Shown: positions 1,554-58,441 of the stretch, one piece after another
Position numbering within the stretch: position 1 is the stretch's first letter
Layout of the letters: each line of letters begins with the position of its first letter
NCBI RefSeq assembly: GCF_041737375.1
Contig: NZ_JBGSRV010000003.1
Location: 76,522 to 140,521, forward strand
Length of the DNA: 64,000 nucleotides
Reading direction: 5' to 3'
Source: Vampirovibrio sp.
GTDB taxonomy: Bacteria > Cyanobacteriota > Vampirovibrionia > Vampirovibrionales > Vampirovibrionaceae
Made by a program: the position numbers and the translations under genes
The notes under the pieces: model-generated
What the model was told of the DNA's origin: nothing
What the model saw: only the letters and a program-made list of their open reading frames with translations
The model's database searches: none

Positions 1554-3713
<2,160 letters not shown>

Positions 3714-3737
3714 GAAGGTCAGCGAAGGAAGCCAATC

Positions 3738-4676
3738 ATGCCCAACCTGAAGGACATCCGGCGCCGGATTAAAAGCGTCAAAAGCACTCAAAAAATTACG
3801 CAAGCCATGCGTATGGTTGCCGCCGCCAAGGTAAAACGGGCTGAAAACAAGGTCAAAGCAGCCCGTCCCTATACCAGCGAACTCCAAAAAGTGTTCAGCA
3901 ATGTGTTCAATGATTTGCAAAACCATGTGGAACAACTTAGCAATTCCCGTTACGGCGAATTGCTGAAGGCACGGGCCATTCGCAACATTGGCATTGTGGT
4001 GATCACCTCGGATCGGGGCTTGTGCGGGAACTACAACTCCTCCGTCATTCGTCAGGCTTTCCGTTTAGAGCGAGAAGTAAAAGCCCGTGGCCTCACCCCC
4101 AAGTTCTACCTGGTGGGAAACAAGGCCATTCAGGCATTTGCCCGCTATTCGGAATCTGAGGTTTTGGGACGCAGCACCGGCATATCAGCGGCCCCCACGG
4201 TGCAAGATGCCAACCTAATCGCCCAGACCATGACCCAAGCGTTCGTGGATGAAAAAATTGACACCATTGACGTACTTTCCACGCATTTTGTGTCCATGAT
4301 TTCCTACAAAGTGCAGATCAGCCCGGTCATTCCGGTCCGCTCCTTTATTGACTGGGAACCTGAATTGATTCCCTCTTTAAATGACAGCCACTACAGTGTG
4401 TCTGCCAGCAAACTGAAGCCGGAATTATTGATGGAGCCGGATGCGGTGACCACGTTGGATGCCATTGTTCCCATGTATGTCAGCAATCTGTTCTACACCT
4501 TGTTGCTGGAAGGTTCTGCCAGTGAGCTAGCGGCGCGGATGACCGCCATGTCCAACGCAACCACCAATGCGGGCGACATGATTAACCGCCTGACCATTCA
4601 GTACAACAAAGTGCGTCAGGCAGCCATTACCCAGGAAATTCTGGAAATTGTAGGCGGGGCGGAAGCGCTGAAATAA
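3738..4676 (+). CDS. atpG: F0F1 ATP synthase subunit gamma
   Basis: N-terminal 'LKDIRRRIKSVKSTQKITQAMRMVAAAKV' and C-terminal 'ITQEILEIVGGAEAL' are gamma-subunit signatures. Confidence 0.9.
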   Translation: MPNLKDIRRRIKSVKSTQKITQAMRMVAAAKVKRAENKVKAARPYTSELQKVFSNVFNDLQNHVEQLSNSRYGELLKARAIRNIGIVVITSDRGLCGNYNSSVIRQAFRLEREVKARGLTPKFYLVGNKAIQAFARYSESEVLGRSTGISAAPTVQDANLIAQTMTQAFVDEKIDTIDVLSTHFVSMISYKVQISPVIPVRSFIDWEPELIPSLNDSHYSVSASKLKPELLMEPDAVTTLDAIVPMYVSNLFYTLLLEGSASELAARMTAMSNATTNAGDMINRLTIQYNKVRQAAITQEILEIVGGAEALK

Positions 4677-4698
4677 GCTGCTTGATAGTTCAATATAA

Positions 4699-4736
4699 AA
4701 AAACCGGTGAAGGGTCTAACCCAGCCGGTTTTTTAA
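4699..4736 (+). terminator. Putative rho-independent terminator after the gamma gene
   Basis: aaccgg...ccagccgg stem followed by a TTTTTT run, read directly. Confidence 0.45.
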
Positions 4737-5095
4737 TTGCAAAAAACGAGAGTTCAAAAAATGGATCGCCAACACCCTGGCAAAAAACGGGCATCAATTA
4801 ACTGTTTTATTAAATAAATATATCGAGTCGGCCCAGGGTATGGGTGTTGAATTGATACAGATCCGGGCTGCCAGAAAACTGGGGCTTTCCGTTAAACGTA
4901 TCAGCAGTGGCCACTTTGATGTTTTTATCAGCGGCGCCCTGAAACAACGGAAACGTTCCCCGGACCGGGGGATTGGCCACAGGCAGGAAAAAAGATTTGG
5001 CAGCGGCTTCGATAGGATTCATAACGAGAAACACTCACTTTCTCAAATTAAGCGTTGATGAAAAAGGTTGGTGGACGAGCAAGGTTTATGTCTGT

Positions 5096-5172
5096 TAAAC
5101 ACTTAGGTTAGTGTTATTTAAACACCTGCCCTGTTTTTTGTAAACACCTTTTCCATAATTTGTAAGTGTTTG
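5096..5172 (+). promoter_or_regulatory. Periodic array of (T)AAACAC heptamers (three direct copies ~22 bp apart plus two inverted GTGTT copies) in the secA leader
   Basis: Seen directly: taaacac at ~5096, ~5119 and ~5141, with inverted copies at ~5111 and ~5166. The array lies 150-220 bp upstream of the secA ATG. Confidence 0.3.
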
Positions 5173-5319
5173 CTCAAAGAAGCGCATCGGGATTTTGGCA
5201 GAACGATGACAAGCTGCGCTGGTTTTGGGTATACTATAATCAGCCATTGGCAAATTCCGTCTGAATTTCAGCGGTTCATACCCGTTATATTTAAAGCCCG
5301 AAGTCAGAGAGAACCGTCC

Positions 5320-8300
5320 ATGTTCGACCTAATCCGCAAGATGCTGCCCGATCCCAACGAGCGTAAAATCAAAGTCCGTGAGCCTATCGTGGATCACATC
5401 AACGACCTGGAAGCGGAAATGCAGGCGCTTTCTGATGAAGAGCTAAGAGGCAAGACCGCCTATTTTCAGCAAATGCTGGCCGGGCGGGAGCGGGGCGATA
5501 CCGAAAAACGGGATCGCCAGCTGGAAAAAGAAATGCTGGATCTGATTTTGCCGGAAGCGTTCGCCACGGTACGGGAAGCCAGCCGCCGGGTTCTGGGCAT
5601 GCGCCACTTTGACGTGCAGCTATTGGGCGGCATGGTTTTACACGATGGCGGCATTGCGGAAATGAGAACCGGAGAGGGAAAAACCCTGGTAGCCACTTTG
5701 CCCGCCTACCTGAACGCTTTAAGCGGCAAAGGTGTCCATGTGATTACCGTCAACGATTACCTGGCCCGCCGGGATGCCGAGTGGATGGGCAAGGTTTACA
5801 ATTTTCTGGGGCTGAGCACCGGAATGGTCCTGTCCCAACAGCGCAGCTTTAACGCGTTTGCCGATAAAAAAGACGCCTACGACGCTGATATTACCTACGG
5901 CACCAACAACGAATTCGGGTTTGACTATCTGCGAGATAACATGGCGGGTTCCAAAAGCCAGTTGGTACAGCGTCCCTTCAATTTTGCCATTATTGATGAA
6001 GTGGATAGCATTTTGATTGACGAGGCCCGTACCCCGCTCATTATTAGCGGGCGGCTCGAGCAATCGGCGGACATGTACCGCACCATGGCTCGCATTGCCC
6101 CCTTGTTGCAGCCAGAACGTGACTACACCGTGGATGAAAAGGGCAGAAACGTTGTTTTAACTGAGGACGGTATCGATCGCGCCCAGGAAGTTCTGGGCAT
6201 TGAAGACCTGTTTGATATTCAGCACAACATGGCCCACCACATGCTTCAGGCGCTGAAGGCCAAGGAACTGTTCCGTGTGGACGTGGATTATGTGGTTAAA
6301 AACAACGAAGTGATCATTGTAGATGAGTTCACCGGGCGCTTAATGGATGGTCGGCGGTGGAGCGATGGTTTGCATCAGGCGGTGGAAGCCAAGGAAGGGG
6401 TGCAAATTCAGGATGAAACCCAAACCTTGGCCAGTATTACCTTTCAAAACCTGTTCCGGCTCTACCCCAAGTTATCGGGCATGACGGGCACCGCGCAGAC
6501 CGAGGAAGCCGAGTTCGGCAAGATTTACAGCCTCAGCGTCACCACCATTCCCACCAACCGGCAAGACAGCCGAAACAATTTGCCGGACACCATTTATAAA
6601 AACGAACGCATCAAAATGTATAAAGTGGTGGAAGAAATTGTGGAATACCACCAGATGAACCGCCCGGTACTGGTGGGAACCGTTTCCATTGAGAAGTCCG
6701 AAGAAATTTCACACCTGCTTTCCAAGCCCGTGGAAATGGCCCAGCATTTGCGGGAAAAAGCGGCCCGCTTGCTGAATAGTCTGGATCAAACCAAGGATGC
6801 CGCGCTTTACAATCAGTTGGTGGGAAAACTCCGTAACCCGGAAGCCGCCAACCCGGAAGACTTTACCCAAATCGCCAAGGGCTTGCCTGAAGATATGGCC
6901 CTCTTTCTGGAAGGACTGGCCAAAACCCTGAAGACTGTTCAGGCCATTCAGGCAGGGCTTCCGCACCAGGTACTCAACGCCAAGCACCACGAGCATGAGG
7001 CCATGATTGTGGCTCAGGCGGGGCGCAAAGGGGCCATTACCATTGCCACCAACATGGCGGGCCGGGGTACCGATATTTTGCTGGGCGGCAACGCCGAACT
7101 CATGGCCAAAAGTGAATATGAGCTGATGGGCATGGACTGGCGCACGGTCGATCCCCAAGAGCTGGAAGCGGCCATTACCCGCAAAAAATTGCTGACTGAT
7201 TCGGAAAAAGAAGAAGTTCTGGCCGGGGGTGGCTTGCACATTATTGGTACCGAACGCCACGAATCACGCCGGATTGACAACCAATTGCGGGGTCGAGCGG
7301 CTCGACAAGGCGATCCCGGCTCTACGCACTTCTTTCTGTCTTTGGAAGATGGTTTGATGCGTAAATTCGGCGGCGAGCGCATTTCAGGCATGATGGACTT
7401 GCTGGGGGTGGATGAAACCATGCCCATTTCCGCCAAAATGGTCAGCAGGGCCATTGAGGGCGCTCAGCGCAAGGTAGAAGCTTACTACTTTGACATTCGT
7501 AAAAATATTTTGCAGTACGATGACGTGTTGACCGAGCAACGCAAGCTGATTTACGAGCAACGCAAAAAAGTGCTGAACGGGGAAAATTTACGGGATTCCA
7601 TTCGCCATATGGTGGAACAGGATATGGAACGCATTATAAGCACCCACTTAATTCCCAACAGCACCCCGGAAGACTGGGCGGATGAAGTGCTGGATGAAAT
7701 GCTGGCCACCATCCATGGCATTTGCCCCCAACTGGGGCCGGTGGTTACGAAGGCCAGTCTGGCTGGAAAAAATCAGGCCCAGCTGCTGGAATTTGTTCGC
7801 ACCGAAGGTTTAAAAGTTTATGAGACGCTGGAAAGCGAATTGACTCGAGTTTCAAGCGAGCTGGAAGCCTCTCATGGGGTCAATCTGGTGGGGCTGGATG
7901 AGGATGATGAAACCATCCAAAGCGAGCTGGCCCAATTATCACCCGAAAAAGCAGCCGAAATTAAGCACCCCCTGCGCCGAATTGAGCGAGACATCCTGCT
8001 ATCAGTGATTGATAACCGCTGGATTGATTATCTGCACAATCTGGATGGCCTGCGGGAAGGCATTGGCTTGCGGGCTTACGGCCAGAAAGATCCGCTGATT
8101 GAATACAAGCGGGAAGCTTTTGAAATGTTTCAGAACCTGACCTACGAAATTCAACGGGATACGGTCATGATTCTGTTCAACACCCGCATTGAAATTCAGA
8201 TGCAGCGCCAACTGGAAGAGCCTGCCTTGACGGTGGAAGCAGAAATGCACCATACCCCCCTGACCGAAGCGCTGGAGCATATTCAGGAAAGCGGGGAAGA

Positions 8301-8412
8301 CGCCTCAACCGCAACCACCGTCATTGCCAGTGAACTTCCTTTGCTGGAGCAGCCGGGCGATAGCGATGAAAACCGCACCCGCAAAAAGCCCAGCAAAATT
8401 AATCCCTTTTAA
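5320..8412 (+). CDS. secA: Preprotein translocase ATPase SecA
   Basis: DEAD-motor motifs (MRTGEGKTLVATLPAYLNAL, TNMAGRGTDI), helical scaffold and wing domains. The start at ATG 5320 (MFDLIRK...) lies 150 nt inside the track ORF. No C-terminal Zn-finger is present. Confidence 0.95.
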   Translation: MFDLIRKMLPDPNERKIKVREPIVDHINDLEAEMQALSDEELRGKTAYFQQMLAGRERGDTEKRDRQLEKEMLDLILPEAFATVREASRRVLGMRHFDVQLLGGMVLHDGGIAEMRTGEGKTLVATLPAYLNALSGKGVHVITVNDYLARRDAEWMGKVYNFLGLSTGMVLSQQRSFNAFADKKDAYDADITYGTNNEFGFDYLRDNMAGSKSQLVQRPFNFAIIDEVDSILIDEARTPLIISGRLEQSADMYRTMARIAPLLQPERDYTVDEKGRNVVLTEDGIDRAQEVLGIEDLFDIQHNMAHHMLQALKAKELFRVDVDYVVKNNEVIIVDEFTGRLMDGRRWSDGLHQAVEAKEGVQIQDETQTLASITFQNLFRLYPKLSGMTGTAQTEEAEFGKIYSLSVTTIPTNRQDSRNNLPDTIYKNERIKMYKVVEEIVEYHQMNRPVLVGTVSIEKSEEISHLLSKPVEMAQHLREKAARLLNSLDQTKDAALYNQLVGKLRNPEAANPEDFTQIAKGLPEDMALFLEGLAKTLKTVQAIQAGLPHQVLNAKHHEHEAMIVAQAGRKGAITIATNMAGRGTDILLGGNAELMAKSEYELMGMDWRTVDPQELEAAITRKKLLTDSEKEEVLAGGGLHIIGTERHESRRIDNQLRGRAARQGDPGSTHFFLSLEDGLMRKFGGERISGMMDLLGVDETMPISAKMVSRAIEGAQRKVEAYYFDIRKNILQYDDVLTEQRKLIYEQRKKVLNGENLRDSIRHMVEQDMERIISTHLIPNSTPEDWADEVLDEMLATIHGICPQLGPVVTKASLAGKNQAQLLEFVRTEGLKVYETLESELTRVSSELEASHGVNLVGLDEDDETIQSELAQLSPEKAAEIKHPLRRIERDILLSVIDNRWIDYLHNLDGLREGIGLRAYGQKDPLIEYKREAFEMFQNLTYEIQRDTVMILFNTRIEIQMQRQLEEPALTVEAEMHHTPLTEALEHIQESGEDASTATTVIASELPLLEQPGDSDENRTRKKPSKINPF

Positions 8413-8473
8413 ACGGGTTTAAAAGGGATTAAAGCCGTTTAAAACCGGTAGGCACACCGAACTTTAAATTCAA

Positions 8474-8512
8474 CCCAAGCCGCTTCTCATCAAGCACCGG
8501 CTTGGGTTTTTT
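8474..8512 (+). terminator. Rho-independent terminator after secA
   Basis: cccaagccg / cggcttggg stem with a 15-nt loop followed by TTTTTT. Confidence 0.6.
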
Positions 8513-8653
8513 CCGTTTATTCGCGCGAGCGGCTTTGGGTCTTGGCGAAAGCTGAAAAAGCTAAAATTGTAAAGGTTTGTGAACACTTTAGGGCGCTAAG
8601 CTCAAAGGTTTTTTCGCAAATGCCGATAAGGCCTTATAGCAAGAGGACTTGGC

Positions 8654-9541
8654 ATGAACTTTTATAACAGCTATTTACAAGGGGTCAACCAGACCATTGG
8701 GGAGCATTCCCGTTATGCGCGCCAATTTCAGGCCGGTCAGGGAAAAACCGGCACTCAGAGCGGGGCCACTACAGCCACGCCCACCCCGGCTCCAGATCAA
8801 AACCCAGCCACCGACCCCACCCAGCTGATGAATTTATTGCTTACGCTGTTCCAGATGATGGGCGGAACGCAGGATACGGCCACCGGAACGACAGGCACCA
8901 CCACAGGAACCACTACCGCCACTACGCCGCCGCCCTATGTCCCCGGATTGACTAACCCGCCACCACCGGCTCAAAACCCGGCGGTTGCTTCCATTGAAAG
9001 CAAATTGAGCGCCAAGGCCAACGCCACCGACCCCAATAGTGCAGCCATCATCCTATCCCCGGCTGATGTTGCCTCGCTGCGGGCCGACTTGCAAAGCGGC
9101 AAATTTTCCGCGGCGGATTTGGGCGAAGCGCTGATGTATAAGCTGGATCAGGCCCCCGACAAAAACCGGGTGGCCATCGGCCAACTCATTCAGGCATTTA
9201 CCAACGCTGGAGAATTGAACATTTCGGCATTCCTGCAAAATGATTACCTGCTCAAGCTATCCCCGGCCCGACAGGAAACGCTCATGAACAGCATCCAGCA
9301 AGGTGGACTGGAACTGGAAAACGGCAAACCCAACGGGCGACTGATTGGCTTTATGCTGGACAACCTGAGCAAGCCCGGCGATCCGCAAAGCAAAGCCTTT
9401 ATTCAGCAGTTGCTGCAAAATTTACAAATCACTTACGCCAAGCATCCCCAATCTTCACAGGGAAAATTGTTGGCCCAATTGATGACACTGGGGGGAATAT
9501 CCGTGGGTGATGATAACGCGCTTATTTTTCAGAATGCTTAA
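8654..9541 (+). CDS. Hypothetical protein with a Thr/Gly/Pro-rich low-complexity segment
   Basis: AGAGGA RBS 6 nt upstream of the ATG. It contains a TGTTGTTTGTTTATTPPP-type tract. I do not recognise a domain. Confidence 0.5.
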   Translation: MNFYNSYLQGVNQTIGEHSRYARQFQAGQGKTGTQSGATTATPTPAPDQNPATDPTQLMNLLLTLFQMMGGTQDTATGTTGTTTGTTTATTPPPYVPGLTNPPPPAQNPAVASIESKLSAKANATDPNSAAIILSPADVASLRADLQSGKFSAADLGEALMYKLDQAPDKNRVAIGQLIQAFTNAGELNISAFLQNDYLLKLSPARQETLMNSIQQGGLELENGKPNGRLIGFMLDNLSKPGDPQSKAFIQQLLQNLQITYAKHPQSSQGKLLAQLMTLGGISVGDDNALIFQNA

Positions 9542-15291: not shown

Positions 15292-15368
15292 TGGCGGGGT
15301 GGACGGGACTCGAACCCGCGACATCTTGCGTGACAGGCAAGTACTCTAACCAACTGAGCTACCACCCC
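15292..15368 (-). tRNA. tRNA-Asp (anticodon GTC)
   Basis: Minus-strand sequence GGGGTGGTAGCTCAGTTGGTTAGAGTACTTGCCTGTCACGCAAGATGTCGCGGGTTCGAGTCCCGTCCACCCCGCCA. It has a 7-bp acceptor stem, the GTC anticodon in a CTGTCAC loop, a TTCGAGT T-loop and an encoded CCA. Confidence 0.9.
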
Positions 15369-34251: not shown

Positions 34252-34377
34252 TGGGGATCCAGCTCTTTGTCATCAATTAGTCACATATTACGCATGTTGG
34301 CGGCGCGTACTGCCGCATTTTATGATCAAATCCCAACTTGAAAGCAAGCCGAAAAATGAGGAGGCGTCCATACCGCA

Positions 34378-37026: not shown

Positions 37027-37226
37027 TTGCCCAAAATACGGGTGAAACGTTTTTTGAGTGACGGTTCCGTGACAAAAAGCAGATTCACGCATGTCCTTTC
37101 AGGAAGGGCATTAAAGCCAACTTTACATTTTGTATTGATCCCCAGCCCTGTCATCAGAATGTCACAGGACTTACCTACGATGGCCTTGCATTCCACATTA
37201 ATGAATCAAAAGGCGTTTCAAAGGTT

Positions 37227-37901
37227 ATGGCCATCAGCTCCATTAGTAGCAATATCGCCCGAGAGGTTTTTCATACTTCTTTGGCTGGCGTGGCCGCCAA
37301 AGGTGTGGGCAGCTCCTTTCGGGTGTGGGATGATCGCAACGCCCCCAGCCCCATCCAGAAAAATACCATTAAACGAGAAGCCGCCACCTTGGCAATGGTT
37401 TCCGCCTTTACGGCAGGCATTGATTTGGCCGGACAAAAAATCACCCAGAAAGCGGCCCAAATACCAGCCCTCAAAACCACACTGGAAAAAGCCGCCCATC
37501 ATCGCATCCTGATTAAAGCCGTCCCCGTATCGCTGGGCATTTTAATGGCGGAATTACTGAGCCGCAAACTGGCCCCCCGCAATATCTGGAGCGAAGATGG
37601 CCAGTTGAACGAAAGCGTTCTGGACTCCGATTCAGATTCCGATGATGAGGATATTGATGCGCTGGACAAGGCGGACCACAAAGCGCCCGACACCTCCGCC
37701 GAGCAGCCCTCTGGCACCCGCAATAAAAAAACAGCTCACGCCCATGTCCATCCCAAGCCACTGCCCCTCACCTTTGCGCAAGCGGGCGCATCCCAGCAGT
37801 ATGCCCCTTTTCCCTCATTTATGCCGTTTCCGGCCTCCTCCCTGTCCAATCCTTTTCAGCAAATGGCATTCACCCGGCTGCCCTCATTCACTGGTCTGTA
37901 A
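37227..37901 (+). CDS. Hypothetical protein with an acidic DSDSDSDDEDID tract
   Basis: 224-aa ORF with a weak RBS. The overlapping 37027 ORF looks non-coding (W/P-rich). Confidence 0.35.
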   Translation: MAISSISSNIAREVFHTSLAGVAAKGVGSSFRVWDDRNAPSPIQKNTIKREAATLAMVSAFTAGIDLAGQKITQKAAQIPALKTTLEKAAHHRILIKAVPVSLGILMAELLSRKLAPRNIWSEDGQLNESVLDSDSDSDDEDIDALDKADHKAPDTSAEQPSGTRNKKTAHAHVHPKPLPLTFAQAGASQQYAPFPSFMPFPASSLSNPFQQMAFTRLPSFTGL

Positions 37902-38772: not shown

Positions 38773-39912
38773 ATGAGTAGCGCCCAGCCCGTTTCCAAAA
38801 ATTTCAGCCAGCTCAAGCACCTGTTTCGAGAGCAACACGTTTTAATGATGTTGCTGAAAGAGTTTAGAGATGGCATTTTAATCTGCGATCGGCAGGGACA
38901 AATTCTACAGGTTAACCGCTCCCTTAAACAGTTTTTGCAGCTGCCAAAAGAAGATGTGGTGGGGCGGCATGTGGAGGCGGTCATTCAAAATCCGGCCTTC
39001 CTGAAGGTGCTGGCCACGGTGCTGGCCACCGGCAATACCTGCGTGGAGGAAATCACGCTGGCTCAGGGAGATCCGCACGAACTGTTTTTTGAAGCCCACA
39101 TTGTGCCCATTAATATTCCGGGCCTGTTGGGCAACGAGCCCGCCCCCCTAACCGAAACGGACACCCAGGCCGTGGATGGGTGCGTAATTATCTTTCATGA
39201 TATTACCGACATTCGGCATACCGAGCGCATGCGCCGGGATTTTGTGGCCAACGTGTCCCACGAACTACGCACCCCGCTCAGCGCCATTGAAGGCTATTCG
39301 GAAACCCTGATTGAAGGGGCGCTGGATGATCCCACCGTGTGCCGGGACTTTATCAACGTCATTCATCGCCATTCGCTGCGCTTAACCCAGCTGGTGGAAG
39401 ATCTGCTGGATCTCTCCAAGCTGGAATCGCCCGATTACAAGCCAGAACTGCTACCCGCCTCCCTGCAGGTTCTCATTCAACAAGTACTGGCCATGGTGCA
39501 GGACAAGGCCGAGGAAAAAAATATTCAGCTAACCGTCGACATTCAGGAGCCGCTGCCCAAGGCCCAAGCCGAATTAAGCAGCCTGCAGCAGGTACTGACC
39601 AATCTGCTGGATAACGCCATTAAATACACCCCCACCGATGGGCGAGTAGTGTTAAAAGCCTATGTGAACGACCGCCAGAAAATTCAGGTGGACGTGATCG
39701 ACAACGGCATTGGGATTGAACCCAAATATCATTCCCGCATTTTTGAGCGCTTTTACCGGGTGGACAAGGCCCGTTCCCGTGAAATGGGAGGGACCGGGCT
39801 GGGTTTATCCATTGTAAAGCACATTGTGCAGCTGCATAACGGCGAAATTTGGGTGGAAAGCAACGACAGCAATGGCTCCACCTTCAGTTTTACTGTTGAT
39901 CCGGTGCTTTAA
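38773..39912 (+). CDS. PAS-domain sensor histidine kinase (cytoplasmic)
   Basis: PAS domain, HisKA H-box 'SHELRTPLSAIEGY', and HATPase N/G boxes (LLDNAIKY, DNGIGI, GGTGLGLSIV). No TM segment is evident. Confidence 0.9.
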   Translation: MSSAQPVSKNFSQLKHLFREQHVLMMLLKEFRDGILICDRQGQILQVNRSLKQFLQLPKEDVVGRHVEAVIQNPAFLKVLATVLATGNTCVEEITLAQGDPHELFFEAHIVPINIPGLLGNEPAPLTETDTQAVDGCVIIFHDITDIRHTERMRRDFVANVSHELRTPLSAIEGYSETLIEGALDDPTVCRDFINVIHRHSLRLTQLVEDLLDLSKLESPDYKPELLPASLQVLIQQVLAMVQDKAEEKNIQLTVDIQEPLPKAQAELSSLQQVLTNLLDNAIKYTPTDGRVVLKAYVNDRQKIQVDVIDNGIGIEPKYHSRIFERFYRVDKARSREMGGTGLGLSIVKHIVQLHNGEIWVESNDSNGSTFSFTVDPVL

Positions 39913-40454
39913 GGGCTGCTTTTCAAACAATCCCCCAGTTTAAAACGCCTTTAAAACCGACTTTAAATCAAGCAGGGAAAGCCGAAAAGGGCGTTGACAA
40001 TGCCCGGTTGTCTTTTCCCGCCTGATCAACCACGCATTGTTAGCAGGAATTGGCTGTGTCAAGTGGCCTCTCACAAAAAGACCCGCCTGATCGTTCAATC
40101 TGGCGAGCCGGGAATTGCTATATGTTAGGGGGTATCTTCATCCTGAAAAGCAATTGCTTGCCTCTCACTGTCTATGAAGGACATTATGCGCCAGTTTTAA
40201 GACAAATGGATGACAGAACGGTAACTATTTTGTAACGTTTCACCCCTCAACGGCTCAAGTGGGGGCCTGCAGGGGGGCCCGAACAGGCGTTCGCCTGCCC
40301 TATCCCGCAGACCCGGTTGGGGATTCCGGCAGGTGGTTGCTCATGCCACCCTTTCCCCGCATGGCTAATAGCTGGGCGGCTCATGCCAAAACCTCATGTT
40401 AATGCTACAGTAGTACCAAGCAAGACTCAAAAGCCTTGTGAAAAGAGGACTATC

Positions 40455-40724
40455 ATGAGAGTACAACCCATTAACGCCCGCATGCCAGTGCATCAGGCAT
40501 CACCTCTGCAACCCACCCCCCAAAGCCAACGGGTTGCCCCTACTTCATCACTAAATCCCATTACCCAACCCGAAACACTCGGACTTCAAAAACTTGGAAA
40601 AACAGACGTGCCATTTGGCCTGACCACCATTTCGTTTGGCCAGCTCAACCAAGCGCCCAAAGTTGCCTCCGCCTTCACCCGGCCCAATCCCAGTTTGGGC
40701 CATCGGCTGGATTATTACGCCTAA
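40455..40724 (+). CDS. Hypothetical small protein
   Basis: AAGAGGA RBS 6 nt upstream of the ATG. 89 aa, Pro/Gln-rich. Its 3' end abuts the convergent caspase gene. Confidence 0.35.
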   Translation: MRVQPINARMPVHQASPLQPTPQSQRVAPTSSLNPITQPETLGLQKLGKTDVPFGLTTISFGQLNQAPKVASAFTRPNPSLGHRLDYYA

Positions 40725-42124
40725 GGTGTTATGCCTGTAGCCAAAGGAGCCACTGGCTGCACAGGGGTCGAGGATAAACGCACATGCGGCAACGGATTGG
40801 CGCAATGGCGGGCAAAGGAGAACGCCTGAGCGATGCGCTCGGTGTGAGATAAGTCTGTCTGGGTGCGGGCATGCTGGTTTTCCCGGCGGGCGGTAGGGTC
40901 GCTTTCCAGGGCGTAGCTGGTGTACATGGACACTTCCTTCAGGTTCAAATCGGGGCGGGCCATAAATTGCACCAGATACTTGGTGTAAAGCCCCTCGTTT
41001 CGCTCCTGAATAGCGGGCATTTTGGGCCGGGAAGCGTATTCAATCCAGGTGTTGGCCAAACCGGGACCGGGTTCGGTTTCCCACTGCTTTAAGGCCGGTT
41101 TTCCAGAGCGGAAGGCGGTGCCTCCGTTCATCAGGGGGGTGCGGCAGGCATCCAGAAAAATCATGTTAAAGTAACTGCCCGCACCCTTTAATTCTCTCAG
41201 CAGGTAATCCACCGACACCGAATTTTCCTCAAACCCCGGTTGCATACTGCCGCTGTATTCCACGGGAATCAGGTAATTATTGCCGTTTACCGAGCCGCCA
41301 TGGCCGGAATAATAAACCATGGAAACCGCGCCCGGATTTTCCCGCAGCTTGCTGGTAAACTGGCTGACCCGAGCCTTCATGGCGGGCCCGCTCAAGTTAT
41401 GGCCCTGAATCACATAAAATCCCTGTCGGCGCAGCAGGCTGGAAATGCTGTTGGCATCCTGAATGGGGCCGCCCTGTAAATCGTTTTCCCCGCCCACATA
41501 GTCATCGTTGGCCAGCACCAGCGCCACACGGGGCGGGCAAAAAGGAAGCCCCAGACTGGTAGGACTCTTTAGCCTCTGTAGCTGAATGACCCGGCCCTTA
41601 TCCTGTAGGGATTGGGCATGTAAGCCCATATCGGAGTACAATTCTGCCCGGTTCTCATAGGCGGCGCTGTTCATGGGGTTAATGCGAACCGCTTGCCCAT
41701 AATCGTTCAGGGCCAGTTGATAATCCTGTGCGGCCACTTCCGGCTGGCCCATTTTTTTGGCGAAATCGCCCAGATACACCCACAGGTTTCCCCGGTTCAA
41801 GTAGGCGTTATAAAAATGGGGATTCATGGCAATGGCGGTACTGTAATCGGCAATGGCCCCCACATAATCTTTTTGGCCCGCCTTGGCCACCCCCCGTTTG
41901 TTCAAAACATGAATATCGGTGGGGTTCAGTTGCAGGTAAGCGTTAAAGGCCTGAATGGCCTGTCCAAACTGGCTGGCCTTGTATAAATTTTCACCCAAAT
42001 CAAAATAATAACGAGACGGGCCACTTTGAGCGGCCTGAGGCGCAAAACGATCGAAAGACGGAGACGGGAAATACAGAGACGAGGGGGCCGCATAAACGGG
42101 CGCCCCGTACCGCCCCAGCACCAT
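40721..42124 (-). CDS. TPR-repeat / caspase-domain (peptidase C14, orthocaspase) protein
   Basis: N-terminal TPR repeats. The C14 domain carries the His (YYSGHGG) and Cys (FLDACR) dyad and an 'ALVLANDDY' start. Confidence 0.85.
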   Translation of the reverse strand: MVLGRYGAPVYAAPSSLYFPSPSFDRFAPQAAQSGPSRYYFDLGENLYKASQFGQAIQAFNAYLQLNPTDIHVLNKRGVAKAGQKDYVGAIADYSTAIAMNPHFYNAYLNRGNLWVYLGDFAKKMGQPEVAAQDYQLALNDYGQAVRINPMNSAAYENRAELYSDMGLHAQSLQDKGRVIQLQRLKSPTSLGLPFCPPRVALVLANDDYVGGENDLQGGPIQDANSISSLLRRQGFYVIQGHNLSGPAMKARVSQFTSKLRENPGAVSMVYYSGHGGSVNGNNYLIPVEYSGSMQPGFEENSVSVDYLLRELKGAGSYFNMIFLDACRTPLMNGGTAFRSGKPALKQWETEPGPGLANTWIEYASRPKMPAIQERNEGLYTKYLVQFMARPDLNLKEVSMYTSYALESDPTARRENQHARTQTDLSHTERIAQAFSFARHCANPLPHVRLSSTPVQPVAPLATGITP

Positions 42125-58244: not shown

Positions 58245-58441
58245 TGCAATGGCTCCTTCATATGGACATTGTTTGGTTTAAAAAGTACTCACAACAGGCC
58301 AAACATTTATTATTTTTTTCGGCCTTTAAAAACCCACTTTGAATTGATGCGCTCACTATACAACGCTGAATGTGAAAACCGGATGACAAACCCGGACTTT
58401 GTTTCAAGTTCCGCAACATAGACAGCATCCGACCTCTATGC

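Follow-up and report, generated by a model that had tools for sequence, protein, structure and literature searches.

In a 64-kb stretch of the Vampirovibrio sp. contig NZ_JBGSRV010000003.1 (hereafter the window), a gene for a protease of the caspase type and a small open reading frame (ORF) converging on it form a pair that is conserved in related genomes. The evidence establishes the conserved gene pair, whereas any action of the two proteins on each other is a proposal. The protease combines tetratricopeptide repeats (TPR) with a Peptidase_C14 domain, and both it and the small protein have exact RefSeq matches (WP_373531144.1 and WP_373531143.1), which come from Vampirovibrio sp. and lie on one contig. 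The caspase call of the original prediction was right, but the gene is already annotated and of a known kind. What our analysis adds is twofold: a genuine, linked small ORF whose product is a candidate substrate or regulator of the protease, and, in the DNA next to it, an undescribed, conserved and probably phosphate-controlled candidate gene for a small RNA (sRNA). We give an even chance to the reading that protease and small protein constitute a vertically inherited two-gene module specific to the Vampirovibrionales, in which the small protein would be docked on the protease.

The linkage of the two genes was analyzed by tblastn, inspection of ORFs and published gene calls in comparison loci and contigs from other genomes (labelled L001–L030, P0005, P0130 etc.). 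The tail-to-tail arrangement of small ORF and caspase gene recurs in at least 17 other loci, with spacings ranging from a 10-nt overlap to a gap of at most about 60 nt. A convergent, abutting small ORF was found in L001, L002, L003, L004, L005, L007, L010, L015, L017, L020, L021, L023, L024, L025 and the P0005 contig. Context look-ups starting from the small proteins P0130, P0128 and the divergent P0149 led each time to a convergent TPR-C14 gene, at distances between a 10-nt overlap and a 46-nt gap, and in every case with context available the small-protein family is located beside this caspase gene. A six-frame scan with a hidden Markov model showed one copy of the small ORF per locus and no paralogue in the window. 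The flanks of the pair differ between genomes. On the side of the small ORF, a kinase/regulator pair follows in the window, L001, L002, L023 and L030; L024 and L025 carry a gene for a 215-aa protein and a UDP-glucose dehydrogenase gene instead, and P0130 is flanked by uncharacterised genes for 468 and 236 aa, then a sigma-factor gene on the small-ORF side, and by a DUF421 gene beyond the caspase gene. On the caspase side, L027 shows an uncharacterised gene for 245 aa and then an alcohol dehydrogenase gene, and an NmrA-like gene is another neighbour of the pair on this side.

Judged by its conservation, the 89-aa ORF is a real, narrowly distributed and tightly linked gene. It had been described as a convergent ORF with a good ribosome-binding site and overlapping stops, and this holds: AAGAGGA precedes it, and its stop codon (40722–40724) overlaps that of the caspase gene (40721–40723). 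Its retention in relatives, at a pairwise ratio of non-synonymous to synonymous substitution rates (dN/dS) of 0.10–0.25 among close pairs, indicates purifying selection and speaks against a spurious call. AGGAGG-like ribosome-binding sites also precede the orthologues. Conservation is focused in four short motifs, namely FGLxT(V/I)SFG, (I/V/L)TP(R/K), an invariant C-terminal G-x-(R/K)-(L/I)-(D/N)-(Y/F/I/V)-(Y/L/F)-Ala-COOH and a weaker N-terminal M-x-x-I-T-P-I, and these persist at the protein level where the DNA alignment fails. A profile search of 5.8 billion proteins yielded 17 clusters of 63–89 aa and an exhaustive HMMER search of 1.84 billion representatives yielded 27 representatives of 62–81 aa; all members are stand-alone short proteins. 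The small protein has no match in Pfam, NCBIfam or PADLOC, and the exhaustive profile search recovered the same narrow family alone. AlphaFold2 (AF2) predicts it to be disordered and without secondary structure (predicted local distance difference test, pLDDT, 58; predicted template modelling score, pTM, 0.12). By direct reading, the N-termini of the family (MRVQPINARMPVHQ..., MFHITQPIQ...) contain no hydrophobic signal segment.

The caspase gene encodes a member of peptidase family C14 (clan CD) with a paracaspase-like catalytic domain, a putative protease. The combination of TPR and C14 domains in 467 residues was confirmed by Pfam: PF00656 (Peptidase_C14) matches residues 199–411 (profile positions 2–213 of 233) with 82.8 bits at a gathering score of 21.4 (4e-23), and the TPR_1, TPR_2, TPR_11 and TPR_16 models match residues 38–174. 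The His/Cys dyad, said to be intact, is invariant in an alignment of 26 orthologues, with the histidine at position 275 (SGHGG, codon 41300–41302) and the cysteine at position 327 (DACR, codon 41144–41146), which argues against a pseudo-protease. In the same alignment Asp223 and Asp325 are also invariant, and the ends of the protein, about the first 35 and the last 20 residues, vary in sequence and length. A database search returned approximately 53 full-length orthologues (E < 1e-84), every one of them with TPR and C14 domains, before a sharp fall to E ~1e-39. According to genome and metagenome scans, these orthologues sit in Vampirovibrionales-type bins. The AF2 model of the protein (pLDDT 82.8, pTM 0.79) comprises a complete caspase-type alpha/beta domain and TPR helices (residues 36–184) with pLDDT above 90; residues 1–32 (pLDDT below 50), the loop following the catalytic cysteine (334–352) and residues 454–467 are disordered. 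No signal peptide was recognisable in the protease, which is therefore probably cytoplasmic. The segment preceding the TPR domain (42025–42124, minus strand) is a disordered stretch with a high content of Pro, Ser and Gln, and its length among orthologues lies between about 0 and 150 residues. Several orthologues begin with an MS(L/I)xxF-like sequence, loosely resembling the N-termini of the small-protein family; a shared targeting signal is a possibility only.

Among solved structures, chains of the paracaspase MALT1 are the best matches to the protease, both by sequence (E 4e-10 for the domain, 3e-17 with a profile) and by fold. Foldseek returned E 8e-15 and a TM score of 0.80 on the 234-residue caspase domain, 3v4o, with ~250 aligned columns, and its top 30 matches are MALT1 chains. 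In the HMMER alignment, H275, C327, D325 and D223 correspond to H415, C464, D462 and D365 of MALT1. The Arg-binding S1 pocket of MALT1 is formed by three acidic residues, of which D365 and D462 are two. Because these two aspartates are conserved, D223 and D325 would line the S1 pocket, and cleavage after Arg or Lys is predicted, as in para-, meta- and orthocaspases. The human protein (PDB 3v4o, 3uo8, 8v4x) and the bacterial one share YYSGHG, LDxCR and the S1 aspartates. However, they are only ~21% identical, the bacterial protein carries N-terminal TPR instead of death or Ig domains, and it gives no sign of activation through dimerisation.

How the two proteins might work together is suggested by the combination of peptide-binding repeats, a predicted Arg/Lys-directed active site, a disordered string of motifs, invariant basic residues and an invariant free C-terminus. 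TPR domains commonly dock free C-terminal tails. The TPR groove of the protease could accordingly dock a motif of the small protein, most plausibly its free C-terminal tail, which would bring the conserved basic sites of the small protein to the protease active site. In this scheme, the small protein would act either as a dedicated substrate, with cleavage as the output, or as a pseudo-substrate restraining the protease. The motif (I/V/L)-T-P-(R/K) resembles what we take to be the MALT1 preference (hydrophobic P4, Ser or Pro at P2, Arg at P1), which serves as a lead rather than a test. A fuller version, in which a previously undescribed non-defence protease-substrate pair operates across the predatory Vampirovibrionales with the small protein as physiological substrate or signal, the TPR domain reads the invariant C-terminal tail, cleavage at the conserved (T-P-)R/K or G-x-R/K sites is the regulatory output and, separately, the neighbouring element represents a new family of PhoB-controlled sRNAs of non-photosynthetic Cyanobacteria, is put forward only tentatively. 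An attempt to match D-type and N-type C-terminal tails to TPR residues was dropped, as it is confounded by phylogeny.

Several observations weigh against this proposal. The two genes are convergent and not co-transcribed, an unusual arrangement for an enzyme and its cognate substrate. At the third S1 position (E500 in MALT1), the manual alignment probably places Gln373, so that P1 specificity is predicted and not certain, and the choice of the TPR-bound motif is a guess. Furthermore, the small ORF is missing beside seven of about 25 orthologous caspase genes (L006, L008, L009, L016, L018, L019 and L029); therefore, the protease can exist without the small protein, at least locally. The most divergent of the caspase orthologues, L029 (39% identity), has a 76-aa neighbour unrelated to the small protein. 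In this locus (3001–7112) the small gene is absent, yet the kinase/regulator pair lies directly downstream of the caspase gene, and therefore the synteny of caspase and phoBR-like genes may predate the pairing of caspase and small ORF. No small partner was found beside more distant TPR-C14 proteins: P0058 lacks a small gene, and the 76-aa neighbour of P0052 is unrelated.

One possible alternative is that both genes are real but functionally independent, or coupled at the RNA level alone by interference or antisense pairing, with their adjacency reflecting inherited synteny. No terminators beyond chance were detected between or inside the convergent genes, and since the 3' ends overlap with no terminator between them, the two mRNAs must overlap in antisense. 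Such an overlap could also add reciprocal control to a docked pair. The convergent orientation with overlapping stops, the seven caspase genes without a small ORF and the origin of all loci from one order, by which phylogenetic inertia adds to the linkage, would all fit independence. Nevertheless, rearrangements on either side have left the pair intact in several distinct contexts, the conserved parts of the small protein are peptide motifs under purifying selection and not blocks of nucleotides, and the family occurs nowhere but beside this caspase gene wherever context is available. We regard independence, or coupling at the RNA level alone, as rather unlikely.

To our knowledge, hardly any native substrate or regulator has been identified for bacterial orthocaspases that act outside defence. 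The locus provides a concrete candidate for such a substrate or regulator in a protein of 62–89 aa that travels with one TPR-caspase family through genome rearrangements. If the model is true, it would offer a native substrate for a bacterial orthocaspase, and with it a caspase-type protease that has a cognate substrate in a housekeeping or regulatory rather than immune setting, in a predatory relative of the Cyanobacteria. If the link fails, an ordinary, already annotated caspase-family gene remains.

The second result concerns the DNA between the kinase gene and the small ORF (39913–40454), which had been taken for a long non-coding stretch. No gene under coding selection was found there, and to that extent the description stands; the region is not empty, and resolves into four parts, namely a terminator, a conserved element, a GC-rich segment and the likely expression signals of the small ORF. 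The conserved element, missed by the original prediction, spans 166 nt on the minus strand and is 81–93% identical in L023, L001, L002, L010, L024 and L025 (five relatives; six loci, two of them near-identical), and the intergenic DNA flanking it does not align. RNAalifold yields −39.65 kcal/mol with a covariation term of −2.35 for the minus strand versus −31.3 and +1.42 for the plus strand. The covarying hairpin shows compensatory changes in L024 and includes G·U pairs whose plus-strand counterparts would be A·C, and the RNA part has a fold z of −2.56. With a covariance model based on these six sequences, further copies were recognised in L030 (E 6e-12), L005, L020, L009 and L026. In a ten-sequence alignment, which was fitted to the model and thus leans towards structure, 93.6% of cells pair, compared to 35–44% in slid controls, and 21 pairs change on both sides, compared to 3–8. 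The distant copies retain the terminator with an ACCCC-containing core, and a 5' array in which three to four (C)TGTCAY/TTTACA units, spaced at an 11-nt period, precede CATAAT. Their helix 1 is broken. No family of Rfam 15 matches the element, and nothing below E 8 was found in 39850–40800. These features point to a candidate sRNA gene on the minus strand, with a start probably near 40175 and probably under phosphate control. For annotation, this means that an apparently 'empty' 540 bp would hold a conserved, structured and probably phosphate-regulated candidate sRNA gene outside all RNA families.

The element could instead be a cis-regulatory or 3'-UTR (untranslated region) element, for example the common terminator and 3' end of transcripts reading through from the caspase gene, or a protein-binding cluster without a stable transcript. 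It does lie downstream of the caspase gene on the same strand, and its 5' half could consist of RNA helices (helices 1–3) rather than a promoter. However, the copies in L020 and L009 are located beside the kinase gene, in L020 about 5 kb away from the caspase/small-ORF pair, and the L026 copy sits among unrelated genes, with the gene for the small protein about 2.6 kb away. All distant copies keep the layout of TGTCAY repeats and CATAAT, their helix 1 is broken, and the TGTCAY-type repeat occurs at four other intergenic sites of the window. We consider an element of this other kind unlikely. As the position of the element varies between the kinase gene (L020, L009), the vicinity of the small ORF (L024) and other places (L005, L026), it is not part of the protease module and most likely belongs to the phosphate regulon.

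Within the unpaired core (40114–40143, minus strand) we noted ACCCCCUAAC, whose complementarity to G-rich, Shine-Dalgarno-like sequences would suit translational repression via pairing with ribosome-binding sites. In a quick look, the core pairs over 5 bp only with the 5' UTR of the caspase gene and not at all with the ribosome-binding site of the small ORF. Besides that, L001 (V. chlorellavorus Vc_AZ_2) contains ~1.5 kb of extra DNA (7997–9527) between the element and the kinase gene, which is absent from the window and L002. Two readings of the plus strand were considered. A micro-protein encoded by the 37-aa ORF (40123–40236) was rejected, as its non-synonymous to synonymous polymorphism ratio (pN/pS) is ~1 and the frame is interrupted by a stop in L002 and shifted in L023. 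An RNA of the plus strand, such as a 5' leader or riboswitch serving the small ORF, is disfavoured. Its A·C mismatches turn into G·U pairs when the minus strand is read, RNAalifold assigns it a worse energy, the terminator works on the minus strand only and the small ORF has a nearer promoter-like signal.

The proposed phosphate control is based on the upstream part of the element (CTGTCATccatTTGTCTTaaaactggcgCATAAT). In E. coli, PhoB-dependent promoters follow the consensus CTGTCAT-N4-CTGTCAY, which ends 10 bp before the −10 region; its direct repeats, at an 11-bp period, take the place of the −35 box. Likewise, the element carries tandem (C)TGTCAY units with an 11-nt period, the last of which ends 10 nt before CATAAT, a tandem pattern expected 0.01 times per 64 kb. 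Scanning the window for TGTCAY-N5-6-KTCWY revealed five sites against 0.44 expected, a number reached by none of 100 shuffles, and all five are intergenic. One is located by a PhoU_div/PHO4 phosphate-transporter operon, two in the divergent region upstream of the orf224-phoB-phoR-like operon and one, followed by TATAGT, upstream of a gene for a HAD-family hydrolase; the fifth is that of the element. Together the predicted sites look like a small Pho regulon, and none was found upstream of the caspase gene or the small ORF. The adjoining OmpR-family regulator has PhoB as its best NCBIfam match (231 bits, equivalog cut-off 296), and the adjoining PAS kinase has PnpS and PhoR (377 bits, equivalog cut-off 400). 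In contrast to the Pho promoters of E. coli, regulator and kinase remain below the equivalog cut-offs, PhoB binding and a phosphate response are predictions and the transcript has no Rfam match. Directly upstream of the regulator gene, a 224-aa ORF without a Pfam or NCBIfam match may represent the first gene of the phoBR-like operon. In its product, an acidic run of Ser and Asp (DSDSDSDDEDID) and a C-terminus rich in Pro and Phe stand out.

GC-rich palindromes had been highlighted in the non-coding stretch, and the string gggggcctgcaggggggccc is indeed present at 40261–40280; as a feature, however, the palindromes were discarded. Their stems are short (5–6 bp), they are not conserved in a 93%-identical relative, the segment has no copy elsewhere in the window or the comparison loci, and 40239–40400 folds no better than shuffles (z = +0.10). 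About 110 nt of this segment are absent from the closest relative, L023. The sole portion of 40239–40454 that can be aligned with L023 is 40403–40449, which comprises the likely promoter of the small ORF and its ribosome-binding site.

The original prediction had connected the protease with programmed cell death or defence signalling, which our data do not bear out. Such a reading would see an anti-phage, abortive-infection or cell-death module in which a TPR sensor activates a caspase-like executioner, as in Craspase-Csx30, gasdermin systems or type IV Thoeris. Precedents exist in which a bacterial caspase-like protease, fused to a repeat sensor, cleaves a substrate encoded next to it (PMC9729208, PMC11106740, bioRxiv 10.1101/2021.06.07.447441, 10.1101/2024.10.24.620036), and PADLOC reports a weak, generic 'caspase' match (1.7e-7). 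However, PADLOC has no match for the small protein or the other neighbours tested, no gasdermin, TIR, Cas or other defence gene lies nearby, the protease has no CHAT domain, and the locus is syntenic throughout the order with a divergence that matches that of core genes, which is not the pattern of a mobile defence island. A defence module is very unlikely.

By function, the closest systems are caspase-like proteases encoded beside their substrates (Craspase, gasdermin operons, type IV Thoeris), and the locus is a member of none of them. Craspase follows a similar logic, with TPR placed N-terminal to a clan-CD caspase-like protease (Csx29, TPR-CHAT) that acts on the same-locus protein Csx30 (PMC9729208, PMC11106740). 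In our locus, in contrast, Pfam reports Peptidase_C14 and TPR families alone and no CHAT domain, no gRAMP/Cas7-11, CRISPR array or defence gene is found nearby, and the partner is a disordered protein of 62–89 aa unrelated to Csx30. Among the solved-structure matches listed for the caspase domain by sequence, MALT1 stands alone, and the 50 best fold matches listed comprise MALT1 (~30 chains), O-GlcNAc transferase (via the TPR region) and two caspases, but no Csx29. In bacterial gasdermin operons, the gene for the caspase-like protease adjoins that for the substrate, which the protease cuts close to the C-terminus (bioRxiv 10.1101/2021.06.07.447441), whereas the neighbour here is far too small, disordered and without a PADLOC or Pfam match, and the genes converge instead of forming an operon. 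RNPP cassettes (Rap-Phr, PlcR-PapR, NprR-NprX), in which the TPR receptor has as its ligand the C-terminus of the adjacent small gene's product, are loosely alike in that a TPR protein is accompanied by an adjacent small gene, here with an invariant C-terminal motif; they differ in that the small protein has no Sec export signal and the output domain is C14 rather than HTH (helix-turn-helix) or phosphatase.

Cyanobacterial orthocaspases such as MaOC1 are, like the protease described here, prokaryotic C14 proteins with a His-Cys dyad and predicted Arg/Lys specificity. The TPR-C14 architecture is not new, because the domain survey in PMC8283722 already lists TPR_1/2/11/12/16 fusions among the rare accessory domains of these proteins. 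Compared with them, however, the present proteins form a separate orthologous family restricted to the non-photosynthetic Vampirovibrionales, with the next relatives at E 1e-39 or worse, and they have a dedicated small neighbour gene. A comparable neighbour of orthocaspases did not appear in targeted term searches of PMC8283722 and PMC4451040 or in other literature searches. The branch of the host is described in PMC4451040 as non-photosynthetic, predatory Cyanobacteria, and its cultured member as preying obligately on Chlorella and equipped with a type IV secretion system and numerous proteases. In another reading, the protease, perhaps together with the small protein, would be delivered to algal prey as a predation effector and cut host proteins after Arg. 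This would suit the predatory lifestyle, the confinement of the family to the Vampirovibrionales, the eukaryotic MALT1 as closest solved relative and the disordered, variable termini of the protease, but is highly improbable given that neither a signal peptide nor a recognisable secretion motif was seen, that the locus is not beside secretion genes, that a tightly linked bacterial partner is better explained by an intracellular pair and that the peptidase tables of the genome paper (PMC4451040) do not mention C14. Literature searches linking Vampirovibrio to caspases or C14 returned nothing relevant, and the supplements of PMC4451040 contain no C14 entry.

Table 1 Features of the protease locus and of the surrounding window (positions refer to the window).
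Feature	Position	Strand	Basis
TPR-caspase gene, 467 aa, WP_373531144.1 'caspase family protein [Vampirovibrio sp.]'	40721..42124	-	ORF, Pfam, RefSeq
TPR domain, residues 36-184, eight helices, ~four repeats	41573..42019	-	Pfam and AF2 model
Caspase/paracaspase-like catalytic domain, residues 199-434	40823..41530	-	alignment, HMMER, Foldseek
Small protein gene, 89 aa, WP_373531143.1 'hypothetical protein'	40455..40724	+	positional orthologues, dN/dS
Small-protein motif FGLTTISFG	40614-40640	+	alignment
Small-protein C-terminal motif GHRLDYYA	40698-40721	+	alignment
Ribosome-binding site AAGAGGA of small ORF	40443-40449	+	sequence
Extended -10-like TGCTACAGT, likely promoter of small ORF	40403-40411	+	L023 has TGGTATAGT there; promoter inferred
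Conserved non-coding element, 166 nt, read as PhoB-box promoter and ~100-nt candidate sRNA	40073..40238	-	alignment, covariation
Tandem units TTACAA/GTTACC/CTGTCAT/TTGTCTT, 11-nt period	40235-40197	-	sequence
CATAAT (-10)	40188-40183	-	sequence
Covarying hairpin	40166-40145	-	RNAalifold
Invariant core of 30 nt, GGAUGAAGAUACCCCCUAACAUAUAGCAAU, predicted unpaired	40143-40114	-	alignment
Terminator stem-loop, then U-run (UUUUUGU) at 40079-40073	40109-40080	-	sequence
Lineage-specific GC-rich filler	40239..40400	.	no conserved feature
Intrinsic-terminator-like hairpin and T-run, downstream of kinase gene	39989..40015	+	terminator scan, consensus match alone
PhoR/PnpS-like histidine kinase gene	38773-39912		NCBIfam
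224-aa ORF directly upstream of PhoB-like regulator	37227-37901	+	conserved in L001, L002, L023, 47-52% identity
Pho-box-like repeat	34268-34284	+	motif scan
Pho-box-like repeat	37058-37074	-	motif scan
Pho-box-like repeat	37149-37165	+	motif scan
Pho-box-like repeat	58372-58388	-	motif scan
tRNA-Asp (GTC)	15292-15368	-	sole Rfam or ARAGORN match in the 64-kb window

The wider surroundings of the pair consist, within ~10 kb, of housekeeping or two-component genes (NmrA-like/DUF2867, CbiX, amine oxidase, TetR, photolyase and phoBR-like genes). The nearest genomes sharing the locus are V. chlorellavorus isolates, with a protein identity of 77–79%. The caspase diverges like its neighbours, with 77–79% identity compared to 81–83% for the NmrA-like protein, 80–82% for the kinase and 80–85% for the neighbours overall. 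On this comparative evidence, the protease gene sits in a conserved, vertically inherited housekeeping block. Among the comparison loci, L005 (DATNPJ010000033.1), from a metagenome-assembled genome labelled 'Coleofasciculaceae cyanobacterium', contains a Vampirovibrionales-type caspase locus together with the small ORF and the RNA element, and L008 (DATNQC010000213.1), labelled 'Oculatellaceae cyanobacterium', carries a Vampirovibrionales-type caspase locus; both bins may be mislabelled or chimeric.

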